DNA of 62,776 nucleotides from Candidatus Eiseniibacteriota bacterium (lineage in GTDB: Bacteria > Eisenbacteria > RBG-16-71-46). The stretch lies in assembly GCA_020849095.1 (NCBI GenBank), contig JADLGX010000320.1, positions 1 to 62,776 of the forward strand. The letters are read 5' to 3'. Every line of letters begins with the position of its first letter. Position 1 is the first letter of the stretch. Below the pieces are notes generated by a model that had not been told where the DNA came from, did not search any database, and worked only from the letters and a program-made list of their open reading frames with translations. Of this stretch, positions 9,501 through 29,597 are shown piece by piece. A program made the translations under genes and the position numbers.

Positions 9501-9660
9501 TCGATACGAAGCCACCCGGTTCGCCAGCACCTGCCTGGAGCTTCTGAAGGAGGTGGGTTCGGAGCGCACTGCTGGCCGGACCAACCTGGCTCACGGTGGC
9601 TCGCGCGGCCCTCTCCGCCAATTCCACTGCCAGGCGCGAAAAGAACGGTTCAGTCGTCAT
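3502..9660 (-). CDS. druE: DruE-like giant SF2 helicase with DUF1998/MrfA-type zinc-ribbon domain and ~480-aa C-terminal extension
   Basis: Walker A RTGTASGKTECF, motif II VLDEAHTY and C-lobe QRAGRAGRRG. Cys clusters CLHCGY and CPRGCDRACHGCLLSYETQ. Start set at ATG 9658-9660, an 11-nt overlap with the upstream stop. Size and architecture fit Druantia DruE. Confidence 0.7.
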   Translation of the reverse strand: MTTEPFFSRLAVELAERAARATVSQVGPASSALRTHLLQKLQAGAGEPGGFVSTPVFEALFDWERHHQPMGKLELLRRDVVDALNAPPAAQSECRFPRERLPYVHQYQAWSSLLNDRKSIVVRTGTASGKTECFLVPILNDLAAEVAALGGSPLVGTRALFLYPLNALINSQRERLLAWTAHFGKNLRFCLYNGNTPEEVPAGEQERSPNEILGRRQLRSAPPPILVTNATMLEFMMVRASDAPIIDQSAGLLRWIVLDEAHTYLGSSAAEIALLLRRVMHAFRVDAKDVRFVATSATIGSGDADQRLASFLADLAGVDPSQVVVIGGRRVVPAIEAALAGSRDPLPAGPALAALGEDQLFEVLARVPLVRDLREQLGAGAKSLQAIAATLGLEGRPKQTLEVLDQISRARKEDVPLLPLRGHFFLRTQAGMWSCTNPTCPGRSDTPLAGPDWPFGDVFFDRRTQCPHCSAPVVDIVFCHGCGEAYLSVEDRNGRLAPHPWTADADVEEDTVEDDEDDSQSGSPGTGFIRLVAGPHGGARDPDGATRLEPTPFDPSSGTLGEGAARLHFAESTDGRFRCGRCGQTDGVGGRGFRAVRLGAPFYLSVGIPAVLEQLPAAAARIERLPAEGRRLITFTDSRQGTARFALRSQMDAERNYVRASIYHQLWAEAGMRDEGAIETTRAELEKLKALGPEFASIAKSHETKLKALEQAGSGAAVPWPTMVARLAQEQVVGEWMPQSLRARYAPASLTGQRMAELVLLRELMRRPKRENSLETLGLVRLHYPGLAACRDIPREWLARGKTEEDWRELLAVMVDFFVRSHTAVLVPDRAMIRWMGTRLSTPIVLPPGEQGQKNRRYPWPSVSEGRRVPRMGRLLALALGLSLEESSDREEINCLLRRAWATVSGVLTSHDDGFRLDLSRTVLETVGVAHICPVTRRVLSRTLLGVSPYQTERWMTGAKCERIEMPRLAFPRGRNPITRERASAEEIRAWLGSPAIEVLRGKGVWTEFSDRLAAFPSTLYYQTAEHSAQVSKSRLARVEADFKSGKVNVLSCSTTMEMGVDIGGLSAVAMNNAPPGPANYQQRAGRAGRRGELRAVVLTLCQASPHGTAVFENTKWPFEQPVHVPRVALESDRICQRHVHSVLLAAFLRRVGATDAHRLTCGWFFLEKDGVAPIADRFVAWLSDEASGDAEVLSAVGTVTRGTPLDGNPDQKIDLARDRIRVIRDRWCAEHEAVRVELDGVGGEPRQDEDAKAVQRALAIQLKRLTNEYLLKTLASEGFLPAYGFPLHVVPFITTTAEQLAQEKEEERDEGFQRDRGYPSRQLERAIVEYAPGSGVIIDGMVYESRGVSLNWLIRPDDRDHREVQALRFAWRCAECGAAGTSTLRQQLCHACGSTVKTRRYLEPAGFAVDIRSQPSNDLSLERYIPRIAPWISAGGGPWQVLPDPRAGHYRYDPNGFVYHHSMGEHGHGYALCLHCGYAESESAPAGSPAPMADLSTQFLQHRRLRGGRKGSPCQGADGGFGVQRWLAFGGASHTDVVEIQLKDPATGQPIDSAPACASIAVALREALARKLGVEPREVGWAVGRNKSADGVLRRSIMLFDLADGGAGYVSYVGENLHALLRDAARILDCPRGCDRACHGCLLSYETQDAVEHLDRRVAQQALSESLLLALELPDQLRFFGPDSQFEAMPIPVAMLVHAQRSGVAEVRVHLGGRVEDWDLREWKLRDRLSTWARGDTTVTLVLPEECLADMNWQETHALANFLEADGITVALVPGRGERVGSGWLLVEMGGSERSIRWASTSPEGLMPGGIWAGNADDARYVRVRAAGPLPPLHARTVPAASVRKPIPGQYTEVRITNELNASIRGVGERFWDLVCSKSQLAKNLLGGEARVTRVCYTDRYLVSPLAVRTLIELLHATRARPGGMADTSEVNLLALDPDARELSRLLTHNFQGGSQYREVLEHCFKVANLPATIAIKTWRNELPHAREMRLEYASGHVLVLRFDQGVGFLRTPRRGVLFNFDAPPEQQARALLGMQFDVESTGVVPVYVGC

Positions 9661-12600
9661 CGAGCACCCCCGAGTTCGTTGCCAACAACAATGCGAGCGA
9701 GACAGCGTGTGCGAAGTCGAAGTACTTTGGATCAAAGGCCCGCGCGCGTCGTAGCCCGAACAGCGCTTCGATTCCCGCCTCTTCCCCCGTCAGACTGATC
9801 GCTGCCAGGAGCGCCGGCGCCTGTAGGACGCTGGTGCGGTAGCCCTGCGAAACCACCGAGCATGCGGTAGCGGCCATGCGCATCGTCTCTTCCCGCAGCA
9901 GGTGTTGCCATTCGAACTCAGGCCATCGCGCGTCTGCATTTCGACGGAAGAAATCCTGCCGCTCCTCGTCCATTTGGTGGTTCAGGTGCTGCGCACCCAC
10001 AGGCGTCGCCGCCAGGTCGAGCACAGGTTGGCTCGGTGGCGAGAAATGCGGGACGCTCCGAGACAAGACCTCGCGCACGACCTGCATGAACGGTTGCTGC
10101 TGCACTGCGTGTTGCGCGAAGGCGTCCGTCAGTGTCGACAGGGCCTGAAGTTTCGTCCAGCCAAGGGTTGGCTCCACAAGCGCGACGACGTCGTCAGCTC
10201 GCCTGCTGGCCGCTTGGGCGGCCTGCAGCCACGCGCGAAGTGGAACGGCGCCCCACAGAAATGGCATCTGCTCGAGTGACCGCCAGAGCACGCTGATCGC
10301 CGTAGGGTCGGACGTCCGCATGAGAGCCGAGGCGGCAGCCGCGGGAACCTGGGTAACGTGACGCACGATGTCGAACGTCGTTGGGGGAAGGTCGCGCAAC
10401 GCGCCAAGAATCGCATCAATCCGCGGCCAGGATTCGTGGGACCAGTCGTTCGCGCAGCTTTCGGCGACGTGGCGGAGCGCGGCCCAGCGCTCGTCCCCCT
10501 CAACGCGCATGGCACGCTGGAGCTCATCGAGCTCCGCAGAAGGCTCACCGTGCTGCGTGATCAACAGTGGGCGAAGCCGCGCCCAGTTGTCCTGCCAACC
10601 GATGACCAGCCAAGGTCCGGCAGGAGCCTGCTCCGCGGGCCAAGCCCAGGAGGTCTCATCTATGCGCCAGAGCTCGAGCGCCGCCCCGTCCGGCTGGTCG
10701 AGCGGACGCGCATCGACCCTCAGCAGGCCCAACGCATCCTCCCCGAGAACCGCCCGACTCGCGTCGTCAATCTCCACTCGAATCACGTGCCCGTGCTCAT
10801 CTCGGATCGGGCACAGCTCCGAGTCGTAGCGCTTCACCTGAATTGGGGTTCCACCGGGATGGATGGAGCCGTGCTCCGCGGCAACTTGGACTTGCACCGC
10901 CGAATCCAGCTTGGAGGTGGTCGCGAGCATCGCGGAAAGCTGGCTCTCGACCAGGTCGAGCCATAGCTCACTCAAACCACCGGCATGCTGCGGCTGAAGC
11001 CAGGCGACGATTCGCCAGTGCGCATTGGGCGGCTTTGCCTCGAGGACGAACCGCTCGTTTCGAGGGCTCTGGGCACGGGCACGCACCGTACCCAATCGAT
11101 CGATGGCGACGACAAAGCTCGAGACCACCGGGCGCCCACCGCGGTCCACGAACCCGCGCCATCGAACGGGACATGGTGAAACAAAGCGCGCTTCCGCGCC
11201 GCGGTGAAAGAGTAGATCGACAGTCATTGACGCGCCCGGCTGAGCGTTTTCGATCTGTAGTCGAAACGCGCCATTCGATTCGCGCATCGAAGTGGCCGAG
11301 AACCCTTCGGCGGTCGAATCGCACCGAACGCCACGCAATCGGGACGAGCGGAGGACCATCGAACCGGCGCGCTGCTCGACCGCGGGCAGCGAAAGCTCGA
11401 AGTCAGGCGGCATGATGCAGGTGCGTGTGCGATGCCGCGTTTCCCCATCGACGCGAACTCGAAGGTCGATGTCTCCAGTCGGTTCGTCGGACCAAGGGAG
11501 CCAATGCGAAGGCGTTGCACACGGGCGCCACTCGAGCTGAAGTGGTAGGACTTCGCGACGCGCGTCTCCAAGCAGCTCGATGACACGTGGGCGGCCGGAC
11601 CAATACTCCGAGCCGGCGTACCCAAAGCGGACGAGTCGGCCGACAAATTCATAGTGTCGTTCGGGCGTTTCCGCCGAACCCGTGCGAAACCGGAACACGT
11701 CGTCGGCCGACCGGTACTCAGCCTCGCCGAGAATTCTCCAAACACGCCACCCTTCGGGCGCGACTCCTTCGCAGCGCTCGACCTGGCCACCGGACACCGA
11801 TGTCGGGCGGTCAGAGGCCGGGAGTGCCACGAGCACGGCGTTGCCCGCCGAGCTGATTGAGCCAAACGCTCGCACACGGTGAGTGCTGCGCAACTCGGTG
11901 CCCTCCAAAACGCGGGGCAGATCCTCGGGTATCGGCTGGCCTCCTGGCGGCTCCGTGATGCCAAGCTCGCGACTCCCAATGCTCGCCGCGAGGAGGACGC
12001 GACCGGTAACCCCGGGGCCTCGGACGATCGGACGTGGCGGTAAGGCCGGCTCGAGCCTGAACCGATCGGTCCCCTCGACCCGGGTCGCTATCGCAACTGG
12101 GCGGGCGACGCCGTCGGGCTCAACGAGCTGCAGGTAGAAGGAAGACGGAAGGGTCGATCCGTCGAGACCGAAGAGCCGCGCGAGGTCGCCTTCGGTCGCC
12201 ACCGGTGCAACGAGCGCGCGTCGCTCAAATCGAGCACCGCCTTCGAGGGAAAGCGTGAGGGCAAGCTCAATTGGAGCTCGCTGCTCTTGACTCTCCCCTC
12301 GCCGTTCTCGCAGCAGACCTCTCAGAAGCGAGAGCGCGACGTCGTCGTCGAGGCGGACCGGAATCTCGTCACGCCACGCCGGACGCACCCGATCGAGCTC
12401 GACGACCGGGTCGGCCACCTCGGGCGGCAGGAGCAGGCGTAGCTGAACAACGCTATCGACGAGCTCGGCGGTCAGGGCGAACACGGTTTCGTTGCGCAGA
12501 GTTCTCGGCAGCCAGCCAGCGAAGCGCTCAACAAGCTCGGTCGCGCCCATTCCATAGCGTTCGGCGGCCCTCAGCACGTCCGTGAAATACAAGCGCAGGC

Positions 12601-13033
12601 TCGTGCGCCTGCTGCTGTCTGCCAGCAGGCCCAGGGGAAGCCCGCCCTCGCAAGCGAGAGTGCGCAAGTACTCTCGACGTGCACCTTCCGACAACGGCCG
12701 ACCCCAGAATCGCAGGCCGCGATCGAGAACGTTGTAGAACTGGACGCTGAGCCCCTCGGTCCAGCCCACGGCAGCCAGGACATCATCCCAGCTCCAAGTA
12801 CCGCTGTCGTACCTCCTGCAAAACTCGCGCGCAGCGAACATGCAGAAGGCCGCTGAGACATGCGCGTCGATCGGACCGAACGGACGAAGCTCGGCGCGGC
12901 ATGCTTGTTGGAGCGCCTCGTGCTCGTCCCGCGTGACCCGGTGACCCCAGAGCGGCCGCCCATCAGGTCGCTGTAGGCCGTTTCGCTCCAGAATCTCCCG
13001 GACGACATGCACGCAAGTGGACATGGCTTGCAC
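9650..13033 (-). CDS. Large protein of unknown function, 1127 aa, in the DruH position of a type III Druantia-like pair
   Basis: Uninterrupted ORF (GTG 13033 or ATG 13024), translationally coupled to the DruE-like gene. No domain recognisable by eye, so the call is positional. Confidence 0.5.
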   Translation of the reverse strand: MQAMSTCVHVVREILERNGLQRPDGRPLWGHRVTRDEHEALQQACRAELRPFGPIDAHVSAAFCMFAAREFCRRYDSGTWSWDDVLAAVGWTEGLSVQFYNVLDRGLRFWGRPLSEGARREYLRTLACEGGLPLGLLADSSRRTSLRLYFTDVLRAAERYGMGATELVERFAGWLPRTLRNETVFALTAELVDSVVQLRLLLPPEVADPVVELDRVRPAWRDEIPVRLDDDVALSLLRGLLRERRGESQEQRAPIELALTLSLEGGARFERRALVAPVATEGDLARLFGLDGSTLPSSFYLQLVEPDGVARPVAIATRVEGTDRFRLEPALPPRPIVRGPGVTGRVLLAASIGSRELGITEPPGGQPIPEDLPRVLEGTELRSTHRVRAFGSISSAGNAVLVALPASDRPTSVSGGQVERCEGVAPEGWRVWRILGEAEYRSADDVFRFRTGSAETPERHYEFVGRLVRFGYAGSEYWSGRPRVIELLGDARREVLPLQLEWRPCATPSHWLPWSDEPTGDIDLRVRVDGETRHRTRTCIMPPDFELSLPAVEQRAGSMVLRSSRLRGVRCDSTAEGFSATSMRESNGAFRLQIENAQPGASMTVDLLFHRGAEARFVSPCPVRWRGFVDRGGRPVVSSFVVAIDRLGTVRARAQSPRNERFVLEAKPPNAHWRIVAWLQPQHAGGLSELWLDLVESQLSAMLATTSKLDSAVQVQVAAEHGSIHPGGTPIQVKRYDSELCPIRDEHGHVIRVEIDDASRAVLGEDALGLLRVDARPLDQPDGAALELWRIDETSWAWPAEQAPAGPWLVIGWQDNWARLRPLLITQHGEPSAELDELQRAMRVEGDERWAALRHVAESCANDWSHESWPRIDAILGALRDLPPTTFDIVRHVTQVPAAAASALMRTSDPTAISVLWRSLEQMPFLWGAVPLRAWLQAAQAASRRADDVVALVEPTLGWTKLQALSTLTDAFAQHAVQQQPFMQVVREVLSRSVPHFSPPSQPVLDLAATPVGAQHLNHQMDEERQDFFRRNADARWPEFEWQHLLREETMRMAATACSVVSQGYRTSVLQAPALLAAISLTGEEAGIEALFGLRRARAFDPKYFDFAHAVSLALLLATNSGVLDDD

Positions 13034-13286
13034 CTGAATTCGCGGTCTACACGCTGTAGCCCGTAGAGTTCAGCGAGAGCAACGTAGCTGGGTCACCTCG
13101 CCACACGAGAACACCATCCGCCCCTTCCGCACCACCAGAACGACCGACCCATCCCGTCGCGCCCCGGCAGCTTACCTCGCGGCCCCGGAAGCTGCTGTGC
13201 CGAGTGCGGACACGTTTGGTGCGACCGTTTCTGTCGCAAGGGCGCGCGGCGGAGCCGAGAGCGGCCCGCACACTGAACCTGCTCCT

Positions 13287-14408
13287 TCACCCCGCCGCCG
13301 CCTTGATCCTCGCCACCTCGTGCACGAATCCAGCGACGTCTCGCGCGAAGTCAGGCGCGCCCACCCTGCCGACCACGACGACCCGGCTCGGCTCGTCCGC
13401 GCCCGGCTCGCGCATGTTGGCGCCACCGCGGAAGCGGCTCCAGAAGAGCTGCGATCCAATCCCCTTCTGTCCGCCACCGATTCGTCCCCGATGAACGAAG
13501 TAGACGTTGCCGGTGTGAGGGTCGCTCGCGAACGCCCCGCCAATCTTGCGGTCCAGGCCCTCGAACGGTGGGTTGACCTGAACGGTGATTTGCAGCGACT
13601 TCTCGGGGTCGGGCCGCGCGATGCCGAAGCAGTTCCAGTACCGGTTGTCGAGGTCCTGGAACAGCGCCCAGAGCTTCAGCGCCGGGCACCAGTGGATCGT
13701 GAAGGTGTCGTTGCCGCCATGGAAACCGATGCGCTGTCGTCGGCGTACTGTGGCAACTTCGAGCAGCTGCTTGCGGGCCGTCTTCATCGCGCGGGCGGCC
13801 GACTTCTTGTCCTCCACGAGGAAGAGCTCGGGCATGTCGGCGTCGCGCGCTGTCGTGCGCATGAACGGGGCGCCGAGCTCGAACAACTGGTCCCAGAGCT
13901 CGGCCCCGGAGTAGAAGGCGCGCGAGTAGTCTGCGAGCTCTTCGGCCGAAGGCACGTGCGCCTTCTCCTTTGCACGCGCCAGCAAAGCGTCGATCGAGAC
14001 TGCAAATGGATCGAGCGTAGCGCCCTCCCACAGGACCACCGCGTCGAGCGGCGCCATGAAACCTGGCGGCGTGAGCTGACCCGCCCCCAAGATGACTCGC
14101 ACGTCGGTGCCCTTCTGGAACCGAAAGACGTTGGCGCGGAAAGAACCGTCGGCAGCGGGGACCAGCCGCAGGCAGTCGTGCTCCTGGAGCCACGCGAGTG
14201 CCGCCGGCTCGGAGCGCATCCCGTCGAGCGCGACGTAGGCTAACCGAATCTTCGCTGCGCTACGCTCGAGGATTTGCCACAGCGGCCACTTCCCTCCACT
14301 TGAGGCGGCTGCCGGTGTTGCGAATGTCAACGCTTCGCACCAGCCGCAGGCGTCCTCGATCGCGGCCTGAAGCACGCTCGGTTCGCTCAGAACACGCGCA
14401 TCGGCCAC
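13287..14408 (-). CDS. Two-domain protein: degenerate PLD/NgoFVII-like N-domain plus unrecognised C-domain, 373 aa
   Basis: GTG start 2 nt after the helicase stop. The N-domain follows the PLD layout, but FRANVFRF...LGAGQLT replaces HxK...GSxNLT. The C-domain (RYWNCFG...ITVQVNPPFEGLDRKIGGAFASDPHTGNVYFVHRGRIGGGQKG) is not recognised. Confidence 0.6.
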   Translation of the reverse strand: MADARVLSEPSVLQAAIEDACGWCEALTFATPAAASSGGKWPLWQILERSAAKIRLAYVALDGMRSEPAALAWLQEHDCLRLVPAADGSFRANVFRFQKGTDVRVILGAGQLTPPGFMAPLDAVVLWEGATLDPFAVSIDALLARAKEKAHVPSAEELADYSRAFYSGAELWDQLFELGAPFMRTTARDADMPELFLVEDKKSAARAMKTARKQLLEVATVRRRQRIGFHGGNDTFTIHWCPALKLWALFQDLDNRYWNCFGIARPDPEKSLQITVQVNPPFEGLDRKIGGAFASDPHTGNVYFVHRGRIGGGQKGIGSQLFWSRFRGGANMREPGADEPSRVVVVGRVGAPDFARDVAGFVHEVARIKAAAG

Positions 14409-14410
14409 GA

Positions 14411-16765
14411 CTACAGGTCCATTCCTGTCCCCGGATTCTTCGGGGCGAAGTAGCGCTCGAACGTATCGAAGAACATGTCGGCCCGGACACGCCAGAAGTC
14501 GGCGCTGGCATTGGGCCCAGGCTTGACGCCGCGCTTGGCGGCATCTTCGAGCGCATCAATGGAGGGCGAGTACGAGCGTTCACGCGCACGGAAGTCCCGG
14601 TTGTGTCCAGCGCTTGGCATGTCTGCGTGCAGCATCTCGTGGAACATCAGGAACTCGACCACGAAGAGCGGGACGTCGGGCGAGTTGAGCACGCAGTTGA
14701 GCGTGATGCTCTTGTCGGAGTACCGGCAGAATCCCCAGAGGCGCGTGGAGACTCGGGTGGACCAGCGCAGGTCTCCGATGAGCGGCGAGCCGTTTGGGAA
14801 GTGCTTCTTCACGCCGAGCACTCCGTCCCGGAGGGCAGTCAGTGAGTGTCCGCGTTCACCCGAGGGCCATGGGTTCGGCGGCCCCTTCGGGACCACCTTC
14901 GCGACCTCGGGCACCACAGGCGGTTTTGGCGGGCTGAGGATGTCGTTCAGCTCGCGTGTCACGTCGTCCACGAAGGCGCGTTGATCGTCGCGGTACACAT
15001 TTCGGCAGGCCGGCTTCCCGTCCCAGATGTCTTGCAGGTGCTTCTGCTGCGCGAGAAGCGGGAGGTTGCCGTCGACCACTGCGCGCGCAATCGTGCGTGG
15101 GTCGAACGAGCTCTTCTCTTCGAAGGTGTAGTGATGGATCGAACACCCCTTGCGCGTCGCATCGAGCAGAGCCTTGATGTCGGCCCAGCGCGGCAGCGGG
15201 TCCGGCACGTCCGCGAAGTAGGTGCGGAGCAGATCTCGCGCCAGGTCCTCCGTCACCTCGCTGGGCACAGACTCCGGCGTCGGAAACGCAGCAAGGAGCG
15301 CTTTGAGCTGCTCGTGCTGATTGTCGAAGACCATGACGGTCCTCCGCTGCAGGTCGTCCTCGAATGCCTCCTCCCAGGCGTACCAACTGTGCGGCAGACA
15401 CTGGAACACGCCCACGAGCTGCCCACGGACGTTGCTCTGAAGCAGTCGGTACGCTTCACGGACAAGCTCGATCGGAATCGAAATCCGCTGCACGTCGGTC
15501 GGTGCCGCAGCCTCCCTCGGAACGTCCAGTGGCTCGGACAGAACGTACTCGGCGTCGAGGACGTTGAACTGCTCCCAAGTGTCGAGGAAGGTCACCAAGT
15601 AGGCGGTGTCGTTGCCGCCGGACTGCTTGCCACGTAGGGCGCGGCCAACCATCTGGGTCAGCAGGCTCTCCGAACGCGTCGGCCGCGCGATGAACACGGT
15701 GCGTGTGTGCGGAGCGTCGAAGCCCTCGGTGAGCATCTCGACGTTCACGAGGACGTCCGGCTTCCTCTGCTCCTGGTACCGCTGGATGACGGCCTGTGCG
15801 TCGTCGCGGCTGTAGGCGACGTAGTCCGCGTCGACGCCCTTCTTCTTGAACTCGCCCGCCAACGTTTGGGCATGGAGCGTGTCTGCCGCGAATACGATGG
15901 TTGGACCGTACGTTCCCCGCTGCTTCAGGTAATGATCGACGATTAGCCCGTTGCGAGATGCGTTTTTCGCAAGTCGCGCCAAGACGTGGGGCCCGAGCTC
16001 GCCGAACCGCTCGAGGTATTTGTAGTCGTCGGGGGTGAAGTCCTTCTCCAAGTTCACGTTCGTCTTGACGGTCTCGAAGCTCGGCGCAGCCAGAACGTCG
16101 CGGTCGGTGAGCTCTCGACGGGTGACCTGGTAGATGACGGAATGGTCGAAGACCGCGCTGAGACGTTTCTCGTCGTCCTCGTCTGCGCGCACAGGAGTTG
16201 CCGTCAGCCCGAGCAAGGGGCATCCCCACTTCTTCAGCCGTTTCAATAGCTCGAAAGACCGCGGTGCCGGCGCATGGTGGGCCTCGTCGAGGACGACGAA
16301 CAACCCGCCCGGCGAGCCGTCGTGTAGCTCCGCAATGAATCCCGCATTGGCGTCCAAGACAGCGCTCTGCATCGAAGAGAAGATCACTTCGTGGTCGGGG
16401 CTCACGTTGGACCACTTGGCGAACGCAGATGAGAGAGCGATGAGATTCAGTGCCTCCTTGCGCGGATGCGCGACGTTCGCAATTCGCGCGAAGGTCGAGA
16501 ACGCCTGGCGGAGAAGGCTGCGGCGATGCGCGAGCCACAGTACGCGCCCACCGGCCGCGATGTGGTGGGCCAAGAGCCAGTGCGCCGCGAGCAGGGTCTT
16601 GCCCCCTCCCGTGGGGACGACGACGAGGCCGGCCTTCTTGCCCGCGTCGACGAAGTGCGCCGTCAGCCGGTCGTGAGCTGCGGTCTGATGGTCGCGCAGG
16701 GTGACGGGGCTTGCCTGCGCAGTCAGCTTCAAGTGAACGTCGGGGGTCCAGGCGGTCGTGGCCAT
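14411..16765 (-). CDS. SF2 (ResIII/DEAH-type) helicase fused to C-terminal COG1451/DUF45 SprT-like HExxH metallopeptidase
   Basis: Helicase motifs VVVPTGGGKT, VVLDEAHH and QMVGRALRG. The C-terminus LWGFCRYSDKSITLNCVL...FLMFHEMLHAD...GHNRDF fits the WGxC / I-x-LN / HExxH / H-x-x-F signature. Start set at ATG 16763-16765; the track start 16834 is a TTG. Confidence 0.75.
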   Translation of the reverse strand: MATTAWTPDVHLKLTAQASPVTLRDHQTAAHDRLTAHFVDAGKKAGLVVVPTGGGKTLLAAHWLLAHHIAAGGRVLWLAHRRSLLRQAFSTFARIANVAHPRKEALNLIALSSAFAKWSNVSPDHEVIFSSMQSAVLDANAGFIAELHDGSPGGLFVVLDEAHHAPAPRSFELLKRLKKWGCPLLGLTATPVRADEDDEKRLSAVFDHSVIYQVTRRELTDRDVLAAPSFETVKTNVNLEKDFTPDDYKYLERFGELGPHVLARLAKNASRNGLIVDHYLKQRGTYGPTIVFAADTLHAQTLAGEFKKKGVDADYVAYSRDDAQAVIQRYQEQRKPDVLVNVEMLTEGFDAPHTRTVFIARPTRSESLLTQMVGRALRGKQSGGNDTAYLVTFLDTWEQFNVLDAEYVLSEPLDVPREAAAPTDVQRISIPIELVREAYRLLQSNVRGQLVGVFQCLPHSWYAWEEAFEDDLQRRTVMVFDNQHEQLKALLAAFPTPESVPSEVTEDLARDLLRTYFADVPDPLPRWADIKALLDATRKGCSIHHYTFEEKSSFDPRTIARAVVDGNLPLLAQQKHLQDIWDGKPACRNVYRDDQRAFVDDVTRELNDILSPPKPPVVPEVAKVVPKGPPNPWPSGERGHSLTALRDGVLGVKKHFPNGSPLIGDLRWSTRVSTRLWGFCRYSDKSITLNCVLNSPDVPLFVVEFLMFHEMLHADMPSAGHNRDFRARERSYSPSIDALEDAAKRGVKPGPNASADFWRVRADMFFDTFERYFAPKNPGTGMDL

Positions 16766-16779
16766 TTCGTAACGTGCTC

Positions 16780-16795
16780 TGCGAATGCCGTGCCA
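16780..16795 (-). promoter_or_regulatory. sigma54-type promoter candidate TGGCACG-GCAT-TCGCA
   Basis: Matches TGGCACG-N4-TTGCW at 7/7 and 4/5 with exact GG-N10-GC spacing. Predicted +1 near 16769, 4 nt before the helicase ATG at 16765. Confidence 0.5.
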
Positions 16796-16854
16796 CCACT
16801 TCGCCTCACGTCTCGGCGCGCAATGCCGGGACAAGCCGCCGCGGCCACACAGAA

Positions 16855-16864
16855 GGAACGTTCC
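16855..16864. promoter_or_regulatory. Perfect 10-bp palindrome GGAACGTTCC (possible activator site)
   Basis: Centred about 90 nt upstream of the predicted +1 of the 16780-16795 element. The GGAAC half-site also occurs in both elements flanking the activator gene. Confidence 0.35.
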
Positions 16865-16870
16865 CCCGGC

Positions 16871-16884
16871 AGAAGGAGCCTTCT
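16871..16884. promoter_or_regulatory. Palindrome AGAAGG-AG-CCTTCT (possible UAS)
   Basis: 6-bp arms. Same family as AGAAGA-GA-TCTTCT at 29499-29512. Centred about 108 nt upstream of the predicted +1. Confidence 0.4.
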
Positions 16885-16897
16885 TCTCGGGCGAACG

Positions 16898-17371
16898 CTA
16901 CCTATCCCACCCCGCTTCACGGCGGTACTTCCTGAGGAGGGCGCCGAGCCGCTTGAGGGTGGCGCTTGCGTCCTTCGGCAACGCGGTCTGATGGACCGCC
17001 AGGTTGCGAAGGCCAACCACCGCGCCCAGGACGGACCTTCGAGAGCGCGCATCCTCGACGCAGGCGCGGACGCTAGGGTCGAGCACCAGGCCTTCGGCAG
17101 CGTCCCCGATAGACTGTAGTAGTTGACCTGCGGTCGCCCTCCGAAGCGAGACGGTCCTCTTGCCGACCTGCGGCAGCAAGTCCGCTGGATCGCGGCGCGC
17201 GGCGAGCGCGACCGCGATCAACAGCTCCCGCAGAAAGTCGTCGAGCTTGGACCCAACCACGGTGATGCCTCCAATCAGGTGGCTCTTCGCCGTCGTGGGC
17301 GCGCGGGCGTCTTCCTTATCGATGCGCTCGAGAAGCGCAGCCGAAGTCTCGTCAAGCGGGTGCCTAGCCAT
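16898..17371 (-). CDS. Minimal HEPN-like (DUF4145-like) helical protein, 157 aa
   Basis: The ATG at 17369-17371 lies 1 nt after the kinase stop. Predicted helical. An R-x4-H motif, RNLAVH (nt 16991-17008), sits near the C-terminus, as in HEPN RNases. Confidence 0.5.
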   Translation of the reverse strand: MARHPLDETSAALLERIDKEDARAPTTAKSHLIGGITVVGSKLDDFLRELLIAVALAARRDPADLLPQVGKRTVSLRRATAGQLLQSIGDAAEGLVLDPSVRACVEDARSRRSVLGAVVGLRNLAVHQTALPKDASATLKRLGALLRKYRREAGWDR

Positions 17372-17372
17372 T

Positions 17373-19106
17373 CTACCCCCTCCCCAACGCCGCCGCGAAG
17401 TCGGAGCACGTCTCGAAGCGCTCCGAGGGAGCATCGCGAAGGGCCCGAGCGACCGCTGTATTCTGACGATTCGAAAGGCGCCCGAACTCACGCGGCTTGT
17501 AACGTCGTTTGAACACGAGCCCCTCCAGCATAGAGCAGAAAACGAGCGCGAGCGCGTACTGGTCCGTCTTCCGTTGCGCTTTCTCTCCGCGGAGCTGCTC
17601 CGGCGCCGCGTACGCCCGCGTGTACGCGACCGGAGCGGTGGCAAAGACCGTGGTGTTTCCGACCGTGTTCTTGCCGGTGCGTCCCTGGACCGCAATGCCG
17701 AAGTCGCCCAGGCGCACCTCCCAGGGGCTAGTGGTCGTCTTCACGAGCACGTTACCCGGTTTCACATCTTGGTGGAGAACGCCCTTCTTGTGCGCGTAGT
17801 CGAGACCGGCCGCCGCCTGACGAACGACCTCGATGGCGACGGCGAGCGCAAGCGAGTCGCCGCTTTCGATGATTCGTTCCAGCGATGTGCCGCCGTGGTC
17901 CATCACCAGGTACGTCCCGACGGTAGGATCGCAACCGTAGTCGATGTAGGTGCAGATGTTCTGGTGACGCAGGTCCCACGCGATGCCCATCTCCTCGCGG
18001 AGACGGGCCCGGGCTGGGTCCGACGAGGTCTTCAGCACGACCAACTTGCGCGGGTGCTCGAGCCGCATCGCTTCCCAGGCAACGCCGAAACCGCCTTCGC
18101 CGAGGCGACGGCGCAGCTCGTAGCGGCCGCTGACAATCCGCCTAGTTCTCTGGGAGGGCGGCAGCTCCGAGTCTTCGGTCTTGCGTCGCCTTTCCGGGGC
18201 GGGTGTCTTGCGCTCTTTTTCCTCCTCCTCCTCGCCCTCGGCCTCGCTGGTCGCTTCACCCACGAGTTCGGGTATCACGCGAGCCAACTTGGTGTTCCCG
18301 TTTGCTGCTTCCAGCCGGCGGACCACTTCTTTAGGCTCCACGTCGGCAACGTCGGCAACCCACCGTAGAAGTGACGGTGCGCGCATGGCGGTCGCGACCC
18401 TGAGCTCCGAGAGCATGGCGCGCGACGGTCCAAGCGCGCTGATCGGTTGCCCGGGCAGGAGGGTACTGAGCAGCGTCCTCCCGTTCGCCGCGCGAGCCTT
18501 GGCCGACAAGCTTCTGGCGGACAGGTCAACGCGACGAGCAAGCCAATTCAGAAGCGGCGGAGCGCGGCGGAGCGCTGCGGCAGGAATCGCACCCACGAGC
18601 TCGAAGACGGCAAAATCCCTCTCCGCATCCAGGAACCGCCGCTGGCTCCCGGGACGAACGGCATCATCGTGCTCTTCCTGTTCGTGGTCGCCGTTCTCGT
18701 CGTCCGCTTCCTCTAGCTCTTCCTGTTCATCGTCCTCGTCGTCGTTGTCGTCGTTGTCGTCGCTCTCGTCCTCCCCTTCCACGAGCTCTTGGAAGACGTT
18801 CGCAAGGAGGCTCTTGCCGTGCTCCTTGTTGAGTCGCGCTCGCACGGTGCGGAGTGAAAGGCCCGTTGCAGCGACAAGTTCCTGCTCGAGGTTCGCGTCG
18901 CGTGCGGCAGCTACAGTGATCCCCTCGAGCCTTGCGGAATCCTCGGGCCACTCATCCGAAAAGATGCGGCCTGCGAGCGTGTTGCCGTGAGCTCGAGTGA
19001 CGCGTGCCGTCACCTGGCGCGCCGAAAGCCCGGTGATTGCGACGAGCAGGCGCAGGTCGCGCTCGCCGAGCATGGAGACGCGGACGTCAGCGAGGCGCTC
19101 GGTCAT
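17373..19106 (-). CDS. Hanks-type Ser/Thr protein kinase with repeat-containing N-terminal region and acidic tract, 577 aa
   Basis: Kinase motifs LGEGGFG, VVLK, HQDVKPGNVL, GDFG and APE in the C-half. The N-half has four ~29-aa HTH/SAP-like repeats and a D/E-rich tract (nt 18663-18779). Confidence 0.85.
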   Translation of the reverse strand: MTERLADVRVSMLGERDLRLLVAITGLSARQVTARVTRAHGNTLAGRIFSDEWPEDSARLEGITVAAARDANLEQELVAATGLSLRTVRARLNKEHGKSLLANVFQELVEGEDESDDNDDNDDEDDEQEELEEADDENGDHEQEEHDDAVRPGSQRRFLDAERDFAVFELVGAIPAAALRRAPPLLNWLARRVDLSARSLSAKARAANGRTLLSTLLPGQPISALGPSRAMLSELRVATAMRAPSLLRWVADVADVEPKEVVRRLEAANGNTKLARVIPELVGEATSEAEGEEEEEKERKTPAPERRRKTEDSELPPSQRTRRIVSGRYELRRRLGEGGFGVAWEAMRLEHPRKLVVLKTSSDPARARLREEMGIAWDLRHQNICTYIDYGCDPTVGTYLVMDHGGTSLERIIESGDSLALAVAIEVVRQAAAGLDYAHKKGVLHQDVKPGNVLVKTTTSPWEVRLGDFGIAVQGRTGKNTVGNTTVFATAPVAYTRAYAAPEQLRGEKAQRKTDQYALALVFCSMLEGLVFKRRYKPREFGRLSNRQNTAVARALRDAPSERFETCSDFAAALGRG

Positions 19107-19171: not shown

Positions 19172-20065
19172 CTAACTGCACTTGGCAGCTCGGCCCGGTA
19201 CGGCATGGCGGTCGACGAGCTTGAATGTCGCGGTGCCCGCGTCAAAGTCAGATCGCACTCGGTGCCAGATGTCCGGGTCGAGGAGCGACACGTCGGTCTG
19301 CTGCCCCGGCGGCTTCTCGTCTAATCCCCCATCGACACGGACGCCGCCAAGGTCCGTCACGATGTAGCGAGCGTGAAATTGATCGCCGTCCGGAAGTTCG
19401 TTCCAGCGAAACAGCTCAACCTTGATTCCCCTCGGGATGAGTCGCGCAAGCTGGCTGTCGCACGAACTGCGGAAGAAGCGCTCGTCTGCCCTCGCGGTAA
19501 GGTGGACTTCGCATCGCCGCAGCCCACGTCCGTCCCGCGCGGCTTCGGTCAGAAGCGCCTCAAAGACCTTTCGGAAGCGCGGTGTCTCCGGGCCGAAATA
19601 CGGGTCGACCAGCTGAAGCTCGCGCGAGCACCTGAGGAGAGGCGACAAGAGCCCCGCAAGCGCGCGTCCCGTCTGGGCCACTCTGCACTCTCGAGCGACT
19701 CTCCAAGGTTCGGCGTCGGGGTCTAGGTCATCACGATTGACCACCTTGGGATGCGCTCTCGGGTTATCGAGGGCCACAATCGCCTTGAACAGCTCGGCCT
19801 CGCGCTCGGTTTCGACCAGCCAATCCCCCGCTGAGAAGTCGCGGGCTACGTCGCACACGGCCAGTGCTGTTGCCCTTCGGAGCCGATCCACAATGCGGAG
19901 CCTCTGCACAGGCTTCCAAGGCGCGGCCTCGAGGACGAGGTCCTGCCACTTCCTCGGACATCTTGCGATGAAGCGCCCAGTGCGGGGACCACACTGATCC
20001 ACGATTCGGCCGAAGTTGGCCTCATCTGCGATCGCAGATGGATCAACGGCAAAAACCTCGAACAT
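19172..20065 (-). CDS. Partner protein of the ATPase, 297 aa, with a C-terminal HxR(x)4D motif (PLD-like?)
   Basis: The ATG at 20063-20065 shares one nt with the ATPase stop (TGATG). C-terminal LVDPYF ... FHARYIVTDLGGVRVDGGLD resembles an HKD motif with K replaced by R. Confidence 0.6.
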   Translation of the reverse strand: MFEVFAVDPSAIADEANFGRIVDQCGPRTGRFIARCPRKWQDLVLEAAPWKPVQRLRIVDRLRRATALAVCDVARDFSAGDWLVETEREAELFKAIVALDNPRAHPKVVNRDDLDPDAEPWRVARECRVAQTGRALAGLLSPLLRCSRELQLVDPYFGPETPRFRKVFEALLTEAARDGRGLRRCEVHLTARADERFFRSSCDSQLARLIPRGIKVELFRWNELPDGDQFHARYIVTDLGGVRVDGGLDEKPPGQQTDVSLLDPDIWHRVRSDFDAGTATFKLVDRHAVPGRAAKCS

Positions 20066-21723
20066 CAAAAGAGCTCCCGCGACCGCTCCTCGAAGAAGCC
20101 TTTCGGCCATTGGTCAATGAACTCGCCCTGATCGTCTACACGGAGCTGATGCACGATCGTACCACCCAGGCCGCGCTCCAAATAGACGACGGCAAGCTGA
20201 GCTGGGCGCAGGCCGGGGTGGCCTTCAGGTAGCTCGCCTCCTGCGGTTTCGCGGATTCGCCGGAGAAGTCGGAGGATGAGGTGCTCGCTGTGGGTCTCAA
20301 CGATGAAGCGGTGCGCCTTGCCCGGTTGAATTCCTGCAACCAGGAGATCCGCAATGTCCGCCTGAAGGCGAGGGTGAACGTGGACCTCGGGCTGCTCGAT
20401 CGTGATGGTCTGCTCGTCTGATGCAAGCACTTGCACGACGAACGGCAGGAGCTGACTGATCCCGAAACCCACGTCCGGCAGTGCAACCGAGGTTGCGGCC
20501 GATCGCTTCTTGTCTTGAAGCCGCACTTCGAACAGATCATTGGAGCGACTACCCACCGGTTCGATGGCAATGCGATATCCAACATCAAGGCGAGTGAGCC
20601 AGTCGTTCGTCTCTTCGACCAGCTTCGGCCGACGAAAGAGAAGGTCCGGAAGCAGGTTCCCCGAGTAGCCAACATCAGGCGGCGTCGTCCCGGTGAAGAT
20701 GTACAGGCGCTGGGGAGCTTTCCTATAGGGCCCCAGCGGAAAGAGACGCTCGAGCGCCATCTCCAACGACACCCCCGCTTCCATCAATGTGTCCGCAGCT
20801 TCGATGAAGTGCGTCCGTAGCGGCAATCTGGATCGCCGGTGGTACGTCGCGGCGGTCCGCTCGGGGTATTCCCCCCCCGCATCTGGACTCACGGCAAACG
20901 GGATGAATCCGTCCAACGCGACAACTCCGCCGTGCGATGCGGATCGCCTCCGCGCTGCGTACGCGGCGAGGGAGAACTCAGAGTTGTAGAACCTGATCGC
21001 TGCGTCAACGGATTCGACCGTGAACTCCTCGTCCGGAAACAGCCGCCCTTGCCGATCCGGGTGTTGTCGCGCGATCTCTTCTCGCATCGCTGCGAGTGAC
21101 TCCAGAATCTCCGTGCGCAGTTGAAGGGTTCGACTGTATTCAGCCTCCCAGTAGTGGTCGTCGGCTACGACCTCCGTACACACGGCACCGCGCGGTCTTC
21201 CTGGGCCCTTCCTATCCCGTCGCATGCCGTACGGTCCAAAGGGTGAGAAACGGCGACTGTGCTGTAGCTGTGCACCGTGCAGATCCTGCGGTTCGAACTG
21301 GGCGACTGATTCAAGTCGTTGCCCATCAAAGACACGAAAGCCCGCTAGAGCGACGTCACCTGCCCCTTTTTGCCGGAACGATACCTCCAGACCAATGGCC
21401 CGCCCGGTCTCACCTTCGTCGCGTGTGCGGAGCATCCTTGACGAGCCTCGCAAGTCGAGCCGAAGAGACAATGTCCGCTCGGCATCGTGGTCGTACAAGA
21501 GCTCGTGAAAGCTCCCAAGATCCACCAACCCGCCCTCCGCGCGCGGCAGGAGCAGCGCTCCGTGTTCACGGCTGAAGCGTGTTTGCTTCAGAAGGTTGAG
21601 CGCATTCAAGATCGAGCTCTTCCCCGCGCTGTTCTCGCCGTAGATGAGGGTGATGGGAGCGAAGTCCAAGCGCACCCTGTTGCCGAAGGCCTTGAAGTTC
21701 TCCAGCTCAATTGCGTGAATCAT
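20065..21723 (-). CDS. AAA_15/ABC-type ATPase with DUF3696-like C-terminus, 552 aa
   Basis: N-terminus MIHAIELENFKAFG...GENSAGKSS (Walker A). Walker B/D-loop region ITIEQPEVHVHP, then ETHSEHL. C-terminal tail EFIDQWPKGFFEE. GGAGG lies 6 nt before the ATG at 21721-21723. Confidence 0.75.
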   Translation of the reverse strand: MIHAIELENFKAFGNRVRLDFAPITLIYGENSAGKSSILNALNLLKQTRFSREHGALLLPRAEGGLVDLGSFHELLYDHDAERTLSLRLDLRGSSRMLRTRDEGETGRAIGLEVSFRQKGAGDVALAGFRVFDGQRLESVAQFEPQDLHGAQLQHSRRFSPFGPYGMRRDRKGPGRPRGAVCTEVVADDHYWEAEYSRTLQLRTEILESLAAMREEIARQHPDRQGRLFPDEEFTVESVDAAIRFYNSEFSLAAYAARRRSASHGGVVALDGFIPFAVSPDAGGEYPERTAATYHRRSRLPLRTHFIEAADTLMEAGVSLEMALERLFPLGPYRKAPQRLYIFTGTTPPDVGYSGNLLPDLLFRRPKLVEETNDWLTRLDVGYRIAIEPVGSRSNDLFEVRLQDKKRSAATSVALPDVGFGISQLLPFVVQVLASDEQTITIEQPEVHVHPRLQADIADLLVAGIQPGKAHRFIVETHSEHLILRLLRRIRETAGGELPEGHPGLRPAQLAVVYLERGLGGTIVHQLRVDDQGEFIDQWPKGFFEERSRELF

Positions 21724-21799
21724 GGTTGACCTCCGAGCCTCCTGTGCAAGCGTCGGGCCATGCGAGACAAGCACCAGTCCGATCGATGTTTGGCGGTCG

Positions 21800-21838
21800 G
21801 ATGCCCTTCAAGTTCTCCAGCTCGATGCGTGTGATCAT
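21800..21838 (-). pseudogene. Vestigial 5' end of an AAA ATPase gene ([13 protein letters not shown]...) coupled to the hsdS stop
   Basis: The ATG overlaps the hsdS stop (ATGA). 39 nt are about 77% identical to the start of the functional ATPase gene 115 nt downstream. The frame then degenerates. Confidence 0.45.
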
Positions 21839-23013
21839 GCTCGTCCCAGTTCCCCGCGAAACGCCTGCTGCGTGAGAGCGTCGAACAAGTCGGCCGCGAT
21901 CCTGTCGTGCGCTCTCTGCGTGGCTTCCACCTTCGCGCAACGCCCAGCGACCGTTTCCAGCGTGCGCTGAAGCGCGAGCGGGGGAACCGGTAGCGCCAAC
22001 TCGCGAATTCCCGGGCCACTGAAGTTTTGCTGCGCCGATTGCCGCGAGCGGCGCGCGATGAACGCCTGGACACGTTCACTGGCGATCACCATCCGCGCAT
22101 AGCGCGGCAGCACGCGCTTCTTCAGTTGCAGGCGAATAAAGTAGGCGCCCGCGACACACTCGGGCGCCTCTTCCTCGACGAGTGCCGTCTTGCCGACTGT
22201 CGCCCCGGTTCTTGCGAAAATGATCTCGCCCGGCTTGAGCGCGTACCGGGCACGGTCCGCCTCGGACATCGAGAGGCGGGGCATCGATTCGAAGTCCAGC
22301 GCCCCCCCCGCGCTGAGGTCAGTGATGCGCACGATGCGCACTCCGTCACTCGAGTACTTCTCGTTGTAGAAGCGAGGTCCGTACTCCATTTTCTGCAGCT
22401 CGGCGCCGAACGTTGACACCGGCCACCCCTTCGGATTCGTCACCGGGTCCCCGAACATCTCCAAGAACGCCGACCGCAGCAGCTCCTCGGTGAGCGCGAT
22501 GGCGTGCTTCCGCTTGCGCCGAACCGCGTCGGCATTGTCGAGGATGTCGGCGATGCGGCGCTGCTCGGGAAGCGGGGGCAGCGGCAGCTCCAGTGCCTCG
22601 AGGTCACGAGGGCTCAGACGTGGAAGATTTGCGCCGGCGCACCTGAGCACGGCCTCTTCGACCGTCTTGGGGTGACGCAGGAAATGGAACAGGAATCCGC
22701 GGTCAACCCGCGGGCCAGGAAGTATCGGCACAATGTCCGTGCTGCAGATGCCGTAGAAATCCGGGCGCGCGGTCTTCTTCAGGTAGGGTCGCAACTTCCC
22801 AAACAGGATGTGCTTCGGCCCAAAGCGAAACTTGTTGCTGGCCAGCACGCCCGATACCACGGGCGACATCCCGACGAAGTTTCCGTCACTGTCGATATGC
22901 TCAAGCCCGACGTAGTTCGTCCCCGTCGCGATGTCTCCGGGCAGAACAGCGTCGCGCTCGATGCTCGCGACGTCGTCAACACGCACGCGCTGCCAGGCGG
23001 CGCCGGTCGTCAC
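21835..23013 (-). CDS. hsdS: Type I restriction-modification specificity subunit
   Basis: Two target-recognition halves separated by the conserved [24 protein letters not shown] spacer. ATGA overlap with hsdM. Confidence 0.85.
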
Positions 23014-24512
23014 AACATCCCCTCCAGCGCCTTCAGGTCCTTCGCAATCTCCGCCTCCAGCGCCCGCAGCTTGCCGATGATCACCTTCGGCGACTCGTAC
23101 TTCACCTCTTCGTGCACTGTCTCCTTGTATCGGTTGATGGAGAGGTCGAAGTTCTTCTCCCGAATGTCAGCGACCGGCACCATGAAGTGCTTGGCCGTGC
23201 GGTCCGCGTCCTGCTTCGGGTTCCTTTTTCGCCAGCGCTCGAGCGCATCCGGCAGGTCGTTCTCCTTGACCGGGTCGCGCTTGTCGTCGAGCGAGAAACC
23301 GTCGGCGCCGACGTCGTGGAAGAAGACGTGATCCGTCTCGCCATTCTTCGTGAATACGAGGATGGCGGTCGACACGCCCGCGTACGGTCGGAACACGCCC
23401 GACGGGAGTGAGATGACAGCCTCGAGCTGGTTGTCGTCGACCAGCATCTTGCGGAGCGCGACGTGGGCTTTCGACGATCCGAAGAGAACGCCGTCAGGCA
23501 CGATGGTCGCGCTGCGGCCGCCCTTTTTAAGCATCCGCAGAATGAGCGCGACGAACAAGAGCTCCGTCTTCTTCGTCTTCACCTTCTGAGTGAGCGACGG
23601 GTGCACATCCTCGGCGTCGAGGCTCCCCTTGAACGGCGGGTTCGCCAGCACCACGTCGAAGCAGCCGCTGGCCTGCTTGGGGAAACGCTCCGGGAAGGAG
23701 TTCGAGAGCGTGTCCTGGTAGTGGATGTCGGGGTTGTCCACGCCATGGAGCATCAGGTTCATCGACGCGATACGGAGCATGGTGCTGTCGAAGTCGAAGC
23801 CATGGAACATGTCGTTCTGGATGTGGCTCCGGTGCTGCTCCAGCTTGTCGCCCGTGTAAACCCTCTCGCCGCTCTCGGCCTTGTAGGTACCCTTGGCGGA
23901 GCTGTGCTTCTCGAGCAAGTACAGCATTGTCCCAACAAGGAAGCCGGCCGTGCCGCACGCCGGATCGCCCACGGTCTCGGTCGGCTTCGGCTCGAGCATC
24001 TCGACCATGAAGCGGATGATGTGGCGTGGAGTCCGGAACTGTCCGTTGATGCCGGCCGTCGTCAGCTTGCTCAGCAAGTACTCGTAGAGGTCGCCCTTGG
24101 TGTCGCCCTCGGTGATGGGCAGGGCATCAATCCTGTTCACGGCGGAAACGAGCAGGCTCGGCCTCTGAATCATGAGCTGTGCGTCGGCCATGTACTCGCC
24201 GAAGGTCGTGCCGCCGTTGAGGCTGCGGAAGTGCGGGAACACCTTGTCGCGCACGATGCCGAGCATCTTCTCAGCCTTGAGGTGCCGGAAATGCGACCAG
24301 CGCAGATCCTGCTCCTTCGGGCCGAAGACGGGCTTGAACGGCTTCTTCGTCCGCGCGGCACGCGCCTCGTTGCGCGTCTCGGCGACGTCGAGCAAGCGCG
24401 CGAACATCAAGAACGAGATTTGCTCGATGACCGTCAGCGGATTGGTGATACCGCCGGTCCAGAACTCCTCCCAGAGCTTGTCGATGTCGTTCTTGAGCTT
24501 TCCAGTGATCAT
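23010..24512 (-). CDS. hsdM: Type I restriction-modification N6-adenine DNA methyltransferase
   Basis: HsdM-type N-terminus ([21 protein letters not shown]), AdoMet motif [10 protein letters not shown] and catalytic NPPF (VLANPPFKG). ATGA overlap with hsdR. Confidence 0.9.
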
Positions 24513-27500: not shown

Positions 27501-27940
27501 GTCGCCGGAGGGTCTGAGTAAGCCGGGCACTGAGCGCGGTTGCCCTGATCGATGCGGAGGAAGACCCACTGCGCGATGTCGAAGGCGTCACGAAGCGCCT
27601 GGAGCGCGGCCTGCGCGCTCGGAGGGTCGTGGTGAGCAGCCTTGTTGCCTGCTTTGCGGATTGTGTGGAGCTTGCCGAGCACCACATCGGGGACGGCGGT
27701 CCGAAACGGCGTCTCGTTCAGGAGATCGAAGACGCTATCGGTGTACGGCCGTGGCAGTCGGTAGGTCTCGTAGATGATGGCGACGACGGTCTCCATGAAG
27801 GAGCGCAGCTTCACGAGCGCGCTTGCGGGGTCCGGACGCGCGTAGACCTCGGCGAACCCACCGAGGTCGGCGAGCTCGGGATGCCTCGGTCGCAGGAACT
27901 CGAAGTTCCTCGACTTCATCAGCGCGTCCTCGGGGAGCAT
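24509..27940 (-). CDS. hsdR: Type I restriction enzyme R subunit with N-terminal DUF4145/HEPN-like module and EcoEI-type C-terminal domain
   Basis: N-terminal NFEFL...[10 protein letters not shown], helicase motifs VQATGTGKT and DESH, long helical C-domain. The alternative start ATG 27919 (MKSRNFEFL) has a GAGGA 7 nt upstream. Confidence 0.85.
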
Positions 27941-27972
27941 GCTCGCCCCAGCAGCACGTTCCGTTCCATCAT
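27938..27972 (-). promoter_or_regulatory. 35-nt element ATGATGGAACGGAACGTGCTGCTGGGGCGAGCATG (sigma54-like TGGAAC-N5-GTGC) ending at the hsdR ATG
   Basis: GG-N10-GC spacing. It overlaps the activator's TGA stop. 27/35 identical, ungapped, to the element at 29563-29597 on the other strand. Confidence 0.45.
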
Positions 27973-29465: not shown

Positions 29466-29498
29466 CGGCCCTGGGAGGGTAACAACTCCTCTGGCGCC

Positions 29499-29512
29499 AG
29501 AAGAGATCTTCT
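29499..29512. promoter_or_regulatory. Palindrome AGAAGA-GA-TCTTCT (possible UAS) in the divergent intergenic region
   Basis: 6-bp arms, extended imperfectly to CCAGAAGAGATCTTCTTGG. Centred about 88 nt upstream of the predicted +1 of the 29563-29597 element. Confidence 0.4.
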
Positions 29513-29562: not shown

Positions 29563-29597
29563 ATGATGGAACGGTTCGTGAAGAAGGGACGTGCATG
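29563..29597 (+). promoter_or_regulatory. 35-nt element ATGATGGAACGGTTCGTGAAGAAGGGACGTGCATG ending at the ATG of the coiled-coil nuclease gene
   Basis: Twin of 27938-27972. -24-like TGGAAC; the -12 position reads GTGA (GA instead of the canonical GC). Same 28-nt distance from TGG to ATG. Confidence 0.4.

Follow-up and report, generated by a model that had tools for sequence, protein, structure and literature searches.

A probable activator-dependent sigma-54 promoter within a defence gene string headed by an RtcR-like activator gene

The question raised by this locus is whether the 132-nucleotide (nt) gap that precedes a helicase gene in a bacterial defence island holds a promoter of its own. 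The gap lies in a 62,776-bp stretch of DNA with a G+C content of ~65% (contig JADLGX010000320.1; hereafter the window), in which an earlier sequence-only reading had noted a near-consensus sigma-54 promoter and two palindromes upstream of the helicase. We find that the gap very probably holds an internal, activator-dependent (enhancer-dependent) sigma-54 promoter, P(helicase), serving the helicase gene and the adjoining gene of p373, a protein with a predicted PLD fold; it possibly also drives the downstream Druantia III genes. On our best reading, P(helicase) is one of three such promoters in a defence gene string headed by a gene for an RtcR-like activator. The features of the gap and its surroundings, in window coordinates, are as follows.

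16898-17371, minus strand: p157, a 157-amino-acid open reading frame (ORF) with its stop at 16898; last gene of the variable cassette upstream of the gap
16766-16897: 132-nt gap between p157 and the helicase gene
16871-16884, minus strand: distal putative activator site (upstream activating sequence) AGAAGGCTCCTTCT; centre at ~-108, fits AGAAG-N4-CTTCT
16851-16864, minus strand: proximal putative activator site GGAACGTTCCTTCT; centre at ~-88, 20 bp from the distal site
16795-16780, minus strand: -24/-12 promoter element of sigma-54 type TGGCACGGCATTCGCA; GG at 16794-16793, GC at 16782-16781
14411-16765, minus strand: SF2 helicase with a C-terminal HExxH YgjP-like domain, 784 amino acids; first gene of the putatively regulated unit
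13287-14408, minus strand: p373; second gene of that unit

A conserved promoter element ahead of the helicase gene

We compared TGGCACGGCATTCGCA with TGGCACG-N4-TTGCW, the consensus quoted in PMC7910581, and found agreement at 11/12 positions with GG and GC exactly 10 nt apart, precisely as the sequence-only reading had reported for 16795-16780. Counted from C-12 at 16781, transcription would start near 16769. Homologues of the helicase are 784-790 amino acids long and begin ~5-8 residues ahead of a conserved W (W-x-P-D); the gene therefore starts at ATG 16765, the gap is real, and the motif is intergenic, ending 14 nt before that ATG. The lengths and N-termini of the homologues rule out TTG 16834 as the helicase start, which would have made the motif coding. 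We detected no sigma-70-like promoter in the gap and no match to an Rfam family, and RNA of the gap was not unusually structured (z = -1.4). As a separate observation, TGTCCCGGCATT at 16822-16833 (minus strand), 38 nt upstream of the promoter, resembles a degenerate second copy of TGGCACGGCATT and may be a vestigial duplicate.

We take the decisive evidence to be conservation across related loci. In twelve loci a gap of ~100-170 nt stands ahead of this helicase gene, whose copies are 65-96% identical: the window, L001, L003, L004 and L021 from reference genomes, and L161, L164-L167, L169 and L170 from exact-protein look-ups. Every one of them has xGGCA(C/T)-N7-G(C/A/G)W 14-27 nt ahead of the ATG. 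G-25, G-24, C-23, A-22 and G-13 are invariant throughout, and Y-21, G-20, C-12 (9/12) and A-11 (10/12) nearly so. No constraint is seen in the 4-nt spacer or the flanks; motif columns contain up to 2.5 bits of information versus ~0.3 bits per flank column. Helicase homologues outside the context of the activator have neither the site pair nor the promoter motif.

The gene 5′ of the gap differs by locus (p157, a kinase or a protein of 303-318 amino acids), with helicase and p373 constant; p373 adjoins the helicase in at least 14 loci. Since the upstream gene is variable and the helicase-p373 pair is not, the gap is a module boundary and the regulatory region travels with the helicase-p373 module. 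Two side observations concern the DNA ahead of the helicase gene. GTGAT stands at -12 of the helicase promoters in L003 and L021, the same as the variant at the divergent promoter described below. L005, L006, L008 and L020, whose helicase homologues lie outside the activator's context, have another conserved element ~60-100 nt 5′ of the helicase start, roughly GTCAGA-N18-GTC-N5-GGGCATG, which may be the site of another regulator.

Paired sites upstream of the promoter

The two palindromes of the sequence-only reading, GGAACGTTCC at 16855-16864 and AGAAGG-NN-CCTTCT at 16871-16884, are both exactly where it placed them, and its estimate of their distance (about 90 and 108 nt, the usual range for activator sites) agrees with centres at -88 and -108. 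We interpret them differently. They are not two different palindromes but a tandem pair of one 14-bp site, AGAAG-N4-CTTCT, conserved across loci, and the GGAACGTTCC palindrome arises because the second copy, GGAACGTTCCTTCT, departs slightly from the consensus. Nor did the GGAAC half-site, which had been equated with the core of twin elements flanking the activator gene, survive the comparison: other loci show ACAAGG, GTAAGA or AGAAAG in its place, and the resemblance is coincidental. The twin elements themselves are the -24/-12 promoter elements TGGAACG-N4-xTG(C/A)W of hsdR and of the divergent gene.

A repeat search independently reported a 14-nt direct repeat with 20-nt spacing in the gap. 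The matrix that describes the site was started from the window's own two copies and refined iteratively on nine of the loci, with spacing left unconstrained. Each of the nine yielded two 14-bp sites, separated by 20 bp in seven loci and by 21 bp in the other two. Of the 11 two-site loci in the full set, 8 have their sites 20 bp apart and 3 have them 21 bp apart, measured from start to start; L169 has one strong site only before the helicase. Proximal centres (for L169, its single site) fall into the classes -74/-76, -86/-88 and -96/-98, in steps of about one helical turn, and the same distance classes occur at P(helicase) and at the divergent promoter P(div). This agrees with the ~70-150 bp upstream and the fixed helical face expected of activator sites; in the window the pair is centred at -108/-88.

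Run over the 62.8-kb window, the matrix gave a single further site pair, at 28297-28330 within the activator gene, and over 30 shuffles it gave no pair. Across 1.49 Mb, 20/21 site pairs stand at three places, two of them ahead of the helicase and activator genes and the third within the activator gene; the single exception is in L049. Matches in L171-L174 and at the L170 activator had not been used in building the matrix. We conclude that the promoter motif alone is not beyond chance and that the paired upstream sites are. No sigma-54 element or site pair was found before DruH (13034-13286) in the window or in L165. Elsewhere, the gap before the kinase gene of L169 (7221-7300) has a strong activator-like site, AGAAGTTTTCTTCT, and 3′ of it a GGCAT...GC string with a spacing of 11 nt, not 10.

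The activator gene and two further putative promoters

Both the site pair and the -24/-12 element recur around the gene for the island's activator, where the following features were placed.

27969-29465, minus strand: RtcR-like CARF/sigma-54 activator, 498 amino acids
28297-28330, minus strand: in-gene site pair with 20-bp spacing in the 3′ part of the activator gene; ~-382/-362 from the hsdR promoter
27968-27953, minus strand: P(hsdR) -24/-12 element TGGAACGGAACGTGCT; directly 3′ of the activator stop, 12 nt before hsdR ATG 27940
24509-27940, minus strand: hsdR
29479-29512: divergent-region site pair, 13-47 nt upstream of the activator ATG; -88/-108 from P(div)
29567-29582, plus strand: P(div) -24/-12-like element TGGAACGGTTCGTGAA; A for C at -12, 12 nt before p567 ATG 29595
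29595-31298, plus strand: p567, divergent gene for a protein of 567 amino acids, always opposite the activator gene

The activator matches the PADLOC model RtcR_PspF2--CARF_AAA_HTH (4e-187, residues 154-648 of the long ORF) and Pfam Sigma54_activat (2e-67), with a GAFTGA loop, the part that contacts sigma-54, at residue 253. It is not RtcR proper, scoring 315 bits against a cutoff of 650 for NCBIfam RNA_repair_RtcR, and its neighbours are hsdR and p567, not rtc genes. It belongs instead with the RtcR-like CARF/AAA+/HTH activators linked to restriction-modification (R-M) systems, a Type I R-M system lying directly 3′ of it in 8/8 loci. It shares a contig with the helicase in 8/12 loci; the remaining four contigs are cut off before the question can be decided. 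Four additional loci, L171-L174 (including Sorangium cellulosum CP012673), were picked by activator homology alone, and L170-L174 have the gene order p567, divergent from activator-hsdR-hsdM-hsdS.

At P(hsdR), TGG(A/C)AC-N7-GC(T/A) is present in 8/8 loci (window, L004, L164, L170-L174) with an in-frame ATG exactly 12 nt on; ATG 27919 was accordingly rejected as the hsdR start in favour of ATG 27940. P(div) reads TGGAACG-N4-xTGA(A/T) in 6/6 loci, with the ATG 12 nt on in 5/6. Its -12 element is non-consensus yet conserved, having A for C (TGAA or TGAT) in all six. The distance of 12 nt from motif to ATG at hsdR and p567 implies that sigma-54 promoters at these positions would give leaderless or 2-nt-leader mRNAs. 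The p567 protein is 67-84% identical in L170-L174, is always encoded divergently from the activator and has no Pfam, NCBIfam or PADLOC match; it is probably a conserved member of the regulon.

A site pair precedes the activator ATG in all six loci that reach the region (window, L170-L174), at -88/-108, -76/-96 or -98/-118 relative to P(div). The best single site in the window, the perfect palindrome AGAAGATCTCTTCT at 29499-29512, is part of this pair. L164 and L004 have a weaker in-gene pair than the window and L171-L174, where it is clear, and L170 has none. The pair encodes QKKVSVGARNLLL, just before the WPGNVREL motif, and does so in rare codons (AGA 3%, TCT 7%, CTT 13%, GCA 14%; also CTT CTT, AAT and GTT), which argues for selection on the DNA itself.

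The helicase and p373

The helicase matches ResIII/Helicase_C in Pfam and PADLOC mREase_IV (1e-20), resembles RadD, HsdR and SauUSI, and has PDB matches to RadD and SauUSI. The p373 protein matched nothing in Pfam (including PLDc), NCBIfam, PADLOC or PDB sequences. Its AlphaFold model (pLDDT 89) was closest in Foldseek to the SauUSI PLD domain (2e-7), followed by NucT, Zucchini, Nuc and BfiI. This predicts a PLD-superfamily fold and upholds the earlier naming of p373 as a PLD protein; the HxK(x)4D catalytic motif is absent, and p373 may be a divergent or inactive PLD.

A model for P(helicase) and its alternatives

We propose that sigma-54 RNA polymerase would wait as a closed complex on TGGCACG-N4-TCGCA, and that an oligomer of the island's RtcR-like CARF/AAA+/HTH activator would bind the 14-bp sites at -108 and -88. 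Its CARF domain would sense a signal, upon which the activator would spend ATP to open the promoter. The same activator would act at the -24/-12 elements before hsdR and p567, each with a site pair of the same type, and would in this way control a three-promoter regulon in the defence island. The earlier proposal of a second, sigma-54-dependent unit from the helicase on is well supported by the -24/-12 element conserved in 12 loci, the paired sites and a GAFTGA activator encoded in the island.

Several points weigh against this reading. Window hits at one mismatch or fewer to TGGCACG-N4-TTGCW number 2 versus 0.76 expected, a count that 16/100 shuffles reach, and relaxed GG-N10-GC patterns, most of them coding, are as frequent as expected. 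The sequence-only reading had named common matches in coding DNA as the finding that would refute it, and with in-window counts at the level of chance this would be the outcome if the motif were the sole evidence. The -12 GC is replaced by GA or GG in 3/12 loci, the TT at -15/-14 is not conserved across the 12, and many of the loci are related, so their counts are not independent events. In the window the predicted helicase leader is only ~4 nt and has no Shine-Dalgarno sequence; the distance from motif to ATG is 19-27 nt in 10/12 loci, 15 nt in L170 and 14 nt in the window. With the distance fixed at 12 nt at the two other promoters, near-leaderless mRNAs may well be usual in this regulon. 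No terminator was detectable in the gap, and the helicase may also arise by read-through. L029 and L168 have neither gap nor promoter, their kinase, p157 and helicase genes being contiguous. The statement that the gap splits the gene string is therefore too strong. A host sigma-54 (rpoN) is presumed, the view being limited to the 62.8-kb contig; rpoN is probably present in the Polyangiaceae relatives, which are Myxococcota. Finally, it is co-occurrence that points to the activator, and not another protein, as the factor that binds the sites.

The contiguity in L029 and L168 also suggests that the kinase and p157, as a pair, are linked in function to the helicase; in L168 the kinase-p157-helicase string adjoins a PglX-like methyltransferase.

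The in-window counts, with sigma-54-like strings at chance level and mostly coding, are what a chance match would give, that is, a GG-N10-GC and two short palindromes in a GC-rich spacer with no regulatory role. The comparative data already contradict this explanation, the motif recurring at the same place and spacing in 12 loci with unconserved flanks and the site pairs being nearly confined to three positions across 1.49 Mb and absent from shuffles, and we consider it extremely improbable. Hardly more credible is that the gap is mainly a cassette-exchange junction, its conserved parts reflecting recent descent or recombination sites and the helicase being made by read-through. The gap does lie where changeable cassettes upstream give way to the constant helicase-p373 pair, the island has a cassette-swap scar at another place, and the missing terminator and the gapless L029 and L168 fit as well. 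Recent descent, however, would have kept the flanks too, and only the -24/-12 positions and the site pairs are kept; phasing is held while the length of the spacer shifts by whole helical turns, and the same architecture appears again at the unrelated P(div) region.

We also judge it unlikely, though less so than the two preceding explanations, that the promoter is real but its sites serve a different protein, such as another activator, a repressor or p567. Binding of the sites by the activator is predicted from sequence, the activator matches HTH_8 weakly (E 0.004, under the Pfam cutoff), and p567 is always co-encoded. Against this, the site pairs are confined to activator-encoding loci, including positions before and inside the activator gene itself; their distance and phasing to the -24/-12 elements are typical of enhancer sites, and p567 shows no DNA-binding domain. 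We therefore prefer an activator-dependent P(helicase) acted on by the island's own RtcR-like protein. More tentatively, and with the balance of our judgement somewhat against it, a CARF-sensing sigma-54 activator may govern the three promoters as one regulon, silent as long as no nucleotide or RNA signal derived from infection has arisen. Because basal activity is all but absent from sigma-54 promoters, hsdR and with it Type I R-M, p567 and the split SauUSI-like module would be kept off until that signal. If this is true, restriction here is transcriptionally inducible.

Relation to known systems

The type of regulation is already known or predicted, and the locus is a new, well-defined instance of it with an explicit regulatory code. 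In the RtcR/rtcBA system of E. coli and Salmonella, as here, a divergent CARF, an AAA+ domain with GAFTGA and a C-terminal HTH are combined in one activator that works on a -24/-12 promoter through an upstream activating sequence; RtcR without its CARF domain is constitutively active (PMC9650030). The present locus differs in having no rtcBA genes, defence genes as targets and three promoters instead of one, and its site motif AGAAG-N4-CTTCT is defined by comparison only.

RtcR-like CARF/AAA+/HTH proteins have been described as adjoining R-M systems, with sigma-54-dependent activation predicted (Makarova et al. 2014, PMC4012209), and RtcR homologues as heading superoperons in which Type I R-M, Druantia III, PLD proteins and a Ser/Thr kinase occur (Bell et al. 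2024, the CoCoNuT paper, PMC11090510). Bell et al. likewise predicted sigma-54-dependent activation of the downstream genes, and expected internal promoters to be RtcR-independent. The superoperons share with the window an RtcR homologue at the 5′ end, Type I R-M directly after it, and a Ser/Thr kinase, PLD protein, helicases and Druantia III following in the same orientation. The difference is that an internal promoter here carries the same activator sites as the 5′ end. We found no promoter or activator-site sequences in the available portions of PMC4012209 and PMC11090510, and literature searches returned no experimental study of the promoters of RtcR-like CARF activators or of their cis elements. 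As for CoCoNuT itself (McrBC-derived CnuB/C plus CnuH), nothing was found in Pfam or PADLOC among the ORFs past DruE, where the contig ends after 3.5 kb.

Experimentally documented cases in Myxococcus include sigma-54 promoters that are internal or intragenic, activator sites in tandem, and variants that differ from GG/GC at a single base (PMC7910581). Like the elements described here, M. xanthus promoters of the Nla28 type have tandem-repeat activator sites 5′ of elements resembling TGGCACG-N4-TTGCW, are often intragenic or operon-internal together with their sites, and tolerate one-base departures from GG/GC (PMC7910581). Unlike them, the locus has an activator with a CARF sensor and a site of AGAAG-N4-CTTCT versus CT(C/G)CG(C/G)AG for Nla28, and its cargo is defence genes, that of Nla28 being natural-product or developmental genes. 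The gene pair behind P(helicase) is reminiscent of Type IV restriction enzymes of the SauUSI type (PLD nuclease plus SF2 helicase), given the helicase's matches to SauUSI and mREase_IV and a modelled p373 fold nearest the SauUSI PLD domain. It differs in that the functions are split over two genes, p373 is without HxK(x)4D, and the C-terminus of the helicase is an HExxH YgjP-like domain, not an SRA-like reader.

This family of loci supplies a cis-regulatory code, consisting of a 14-bp site, its pairing at 20-21 bp, phasing to the promoter and three -24/-12 elements, and this code makes the prediction of sigma-54 induction by RtcR-like activators directly testable. In at least one internal promoter of an activator-headed string the activator sites of the 5′ end recur, so the helicase/PLD module would be inducible separately, whatever the upstream cassette.

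The defence island and its setting

The remaining genes of the island, identified through Pfam, PADLOC and NCBIfam matches, are listed below.

3.5-31.3 kb of the window: defence island, minus strand throughout bar one divergent gene
23010-24512, minus strand: hsdM
21835-23013, minus strand: hsdS
20065-21723, minus strand: AAA_15/21 ATPase
19172-20110, minus strand: p312
17373-19106, minus strand: Ser/Thr kinase, preceding p157
9650-13033 and 3502-9735, minus strand: Druantia III DruH and DruE

We rejected membership of the MADS system: the kinase, ATPase, HsdM and HsdS match mad6, mad3, mad2 and mad5, but ordinary Type I models fit far better, and the helicase and p373 match no mad model. The p312 protein, itself without a family match, has HARYIVTD, which resembles the PLD motif HxK(x)4D with R for K.

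Close relatives of the locus are all from Polyangiaceae or Sorangium, and the contig itself is labelled Candidatus Eisenbacteria. The right half of the window has DUF932 and HTH_17 genes, and related loci have relaxase and PcfJ genes. The mismatch between relatives and label, together with these genes, suggests a mobile element or a mis-binned contig.

The only other near-consensus sigma-54 string in the window is TGGCCCGACGCTTGCA at 21760-21745 (minus strand), with the ATPase ATG 21 nt further on. No site pair is close to it, and L161 and L164, in which the ATPase gene overlaps hsdS, do not conserve it. It falls inside the cassette-swap scar (21707-21838, minus strand), which holds a 43-codon remnant ORF whose ATGA overlaps the hsdS stop. 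The first 14 codons of this remnant represent the 5′ end of the ATPase gene lying next after hsdS in L161 and L164, after which the likeness decays, and a different ATPase gene (32-43% identical) begins at 21723 in the window with its own GGAGG.

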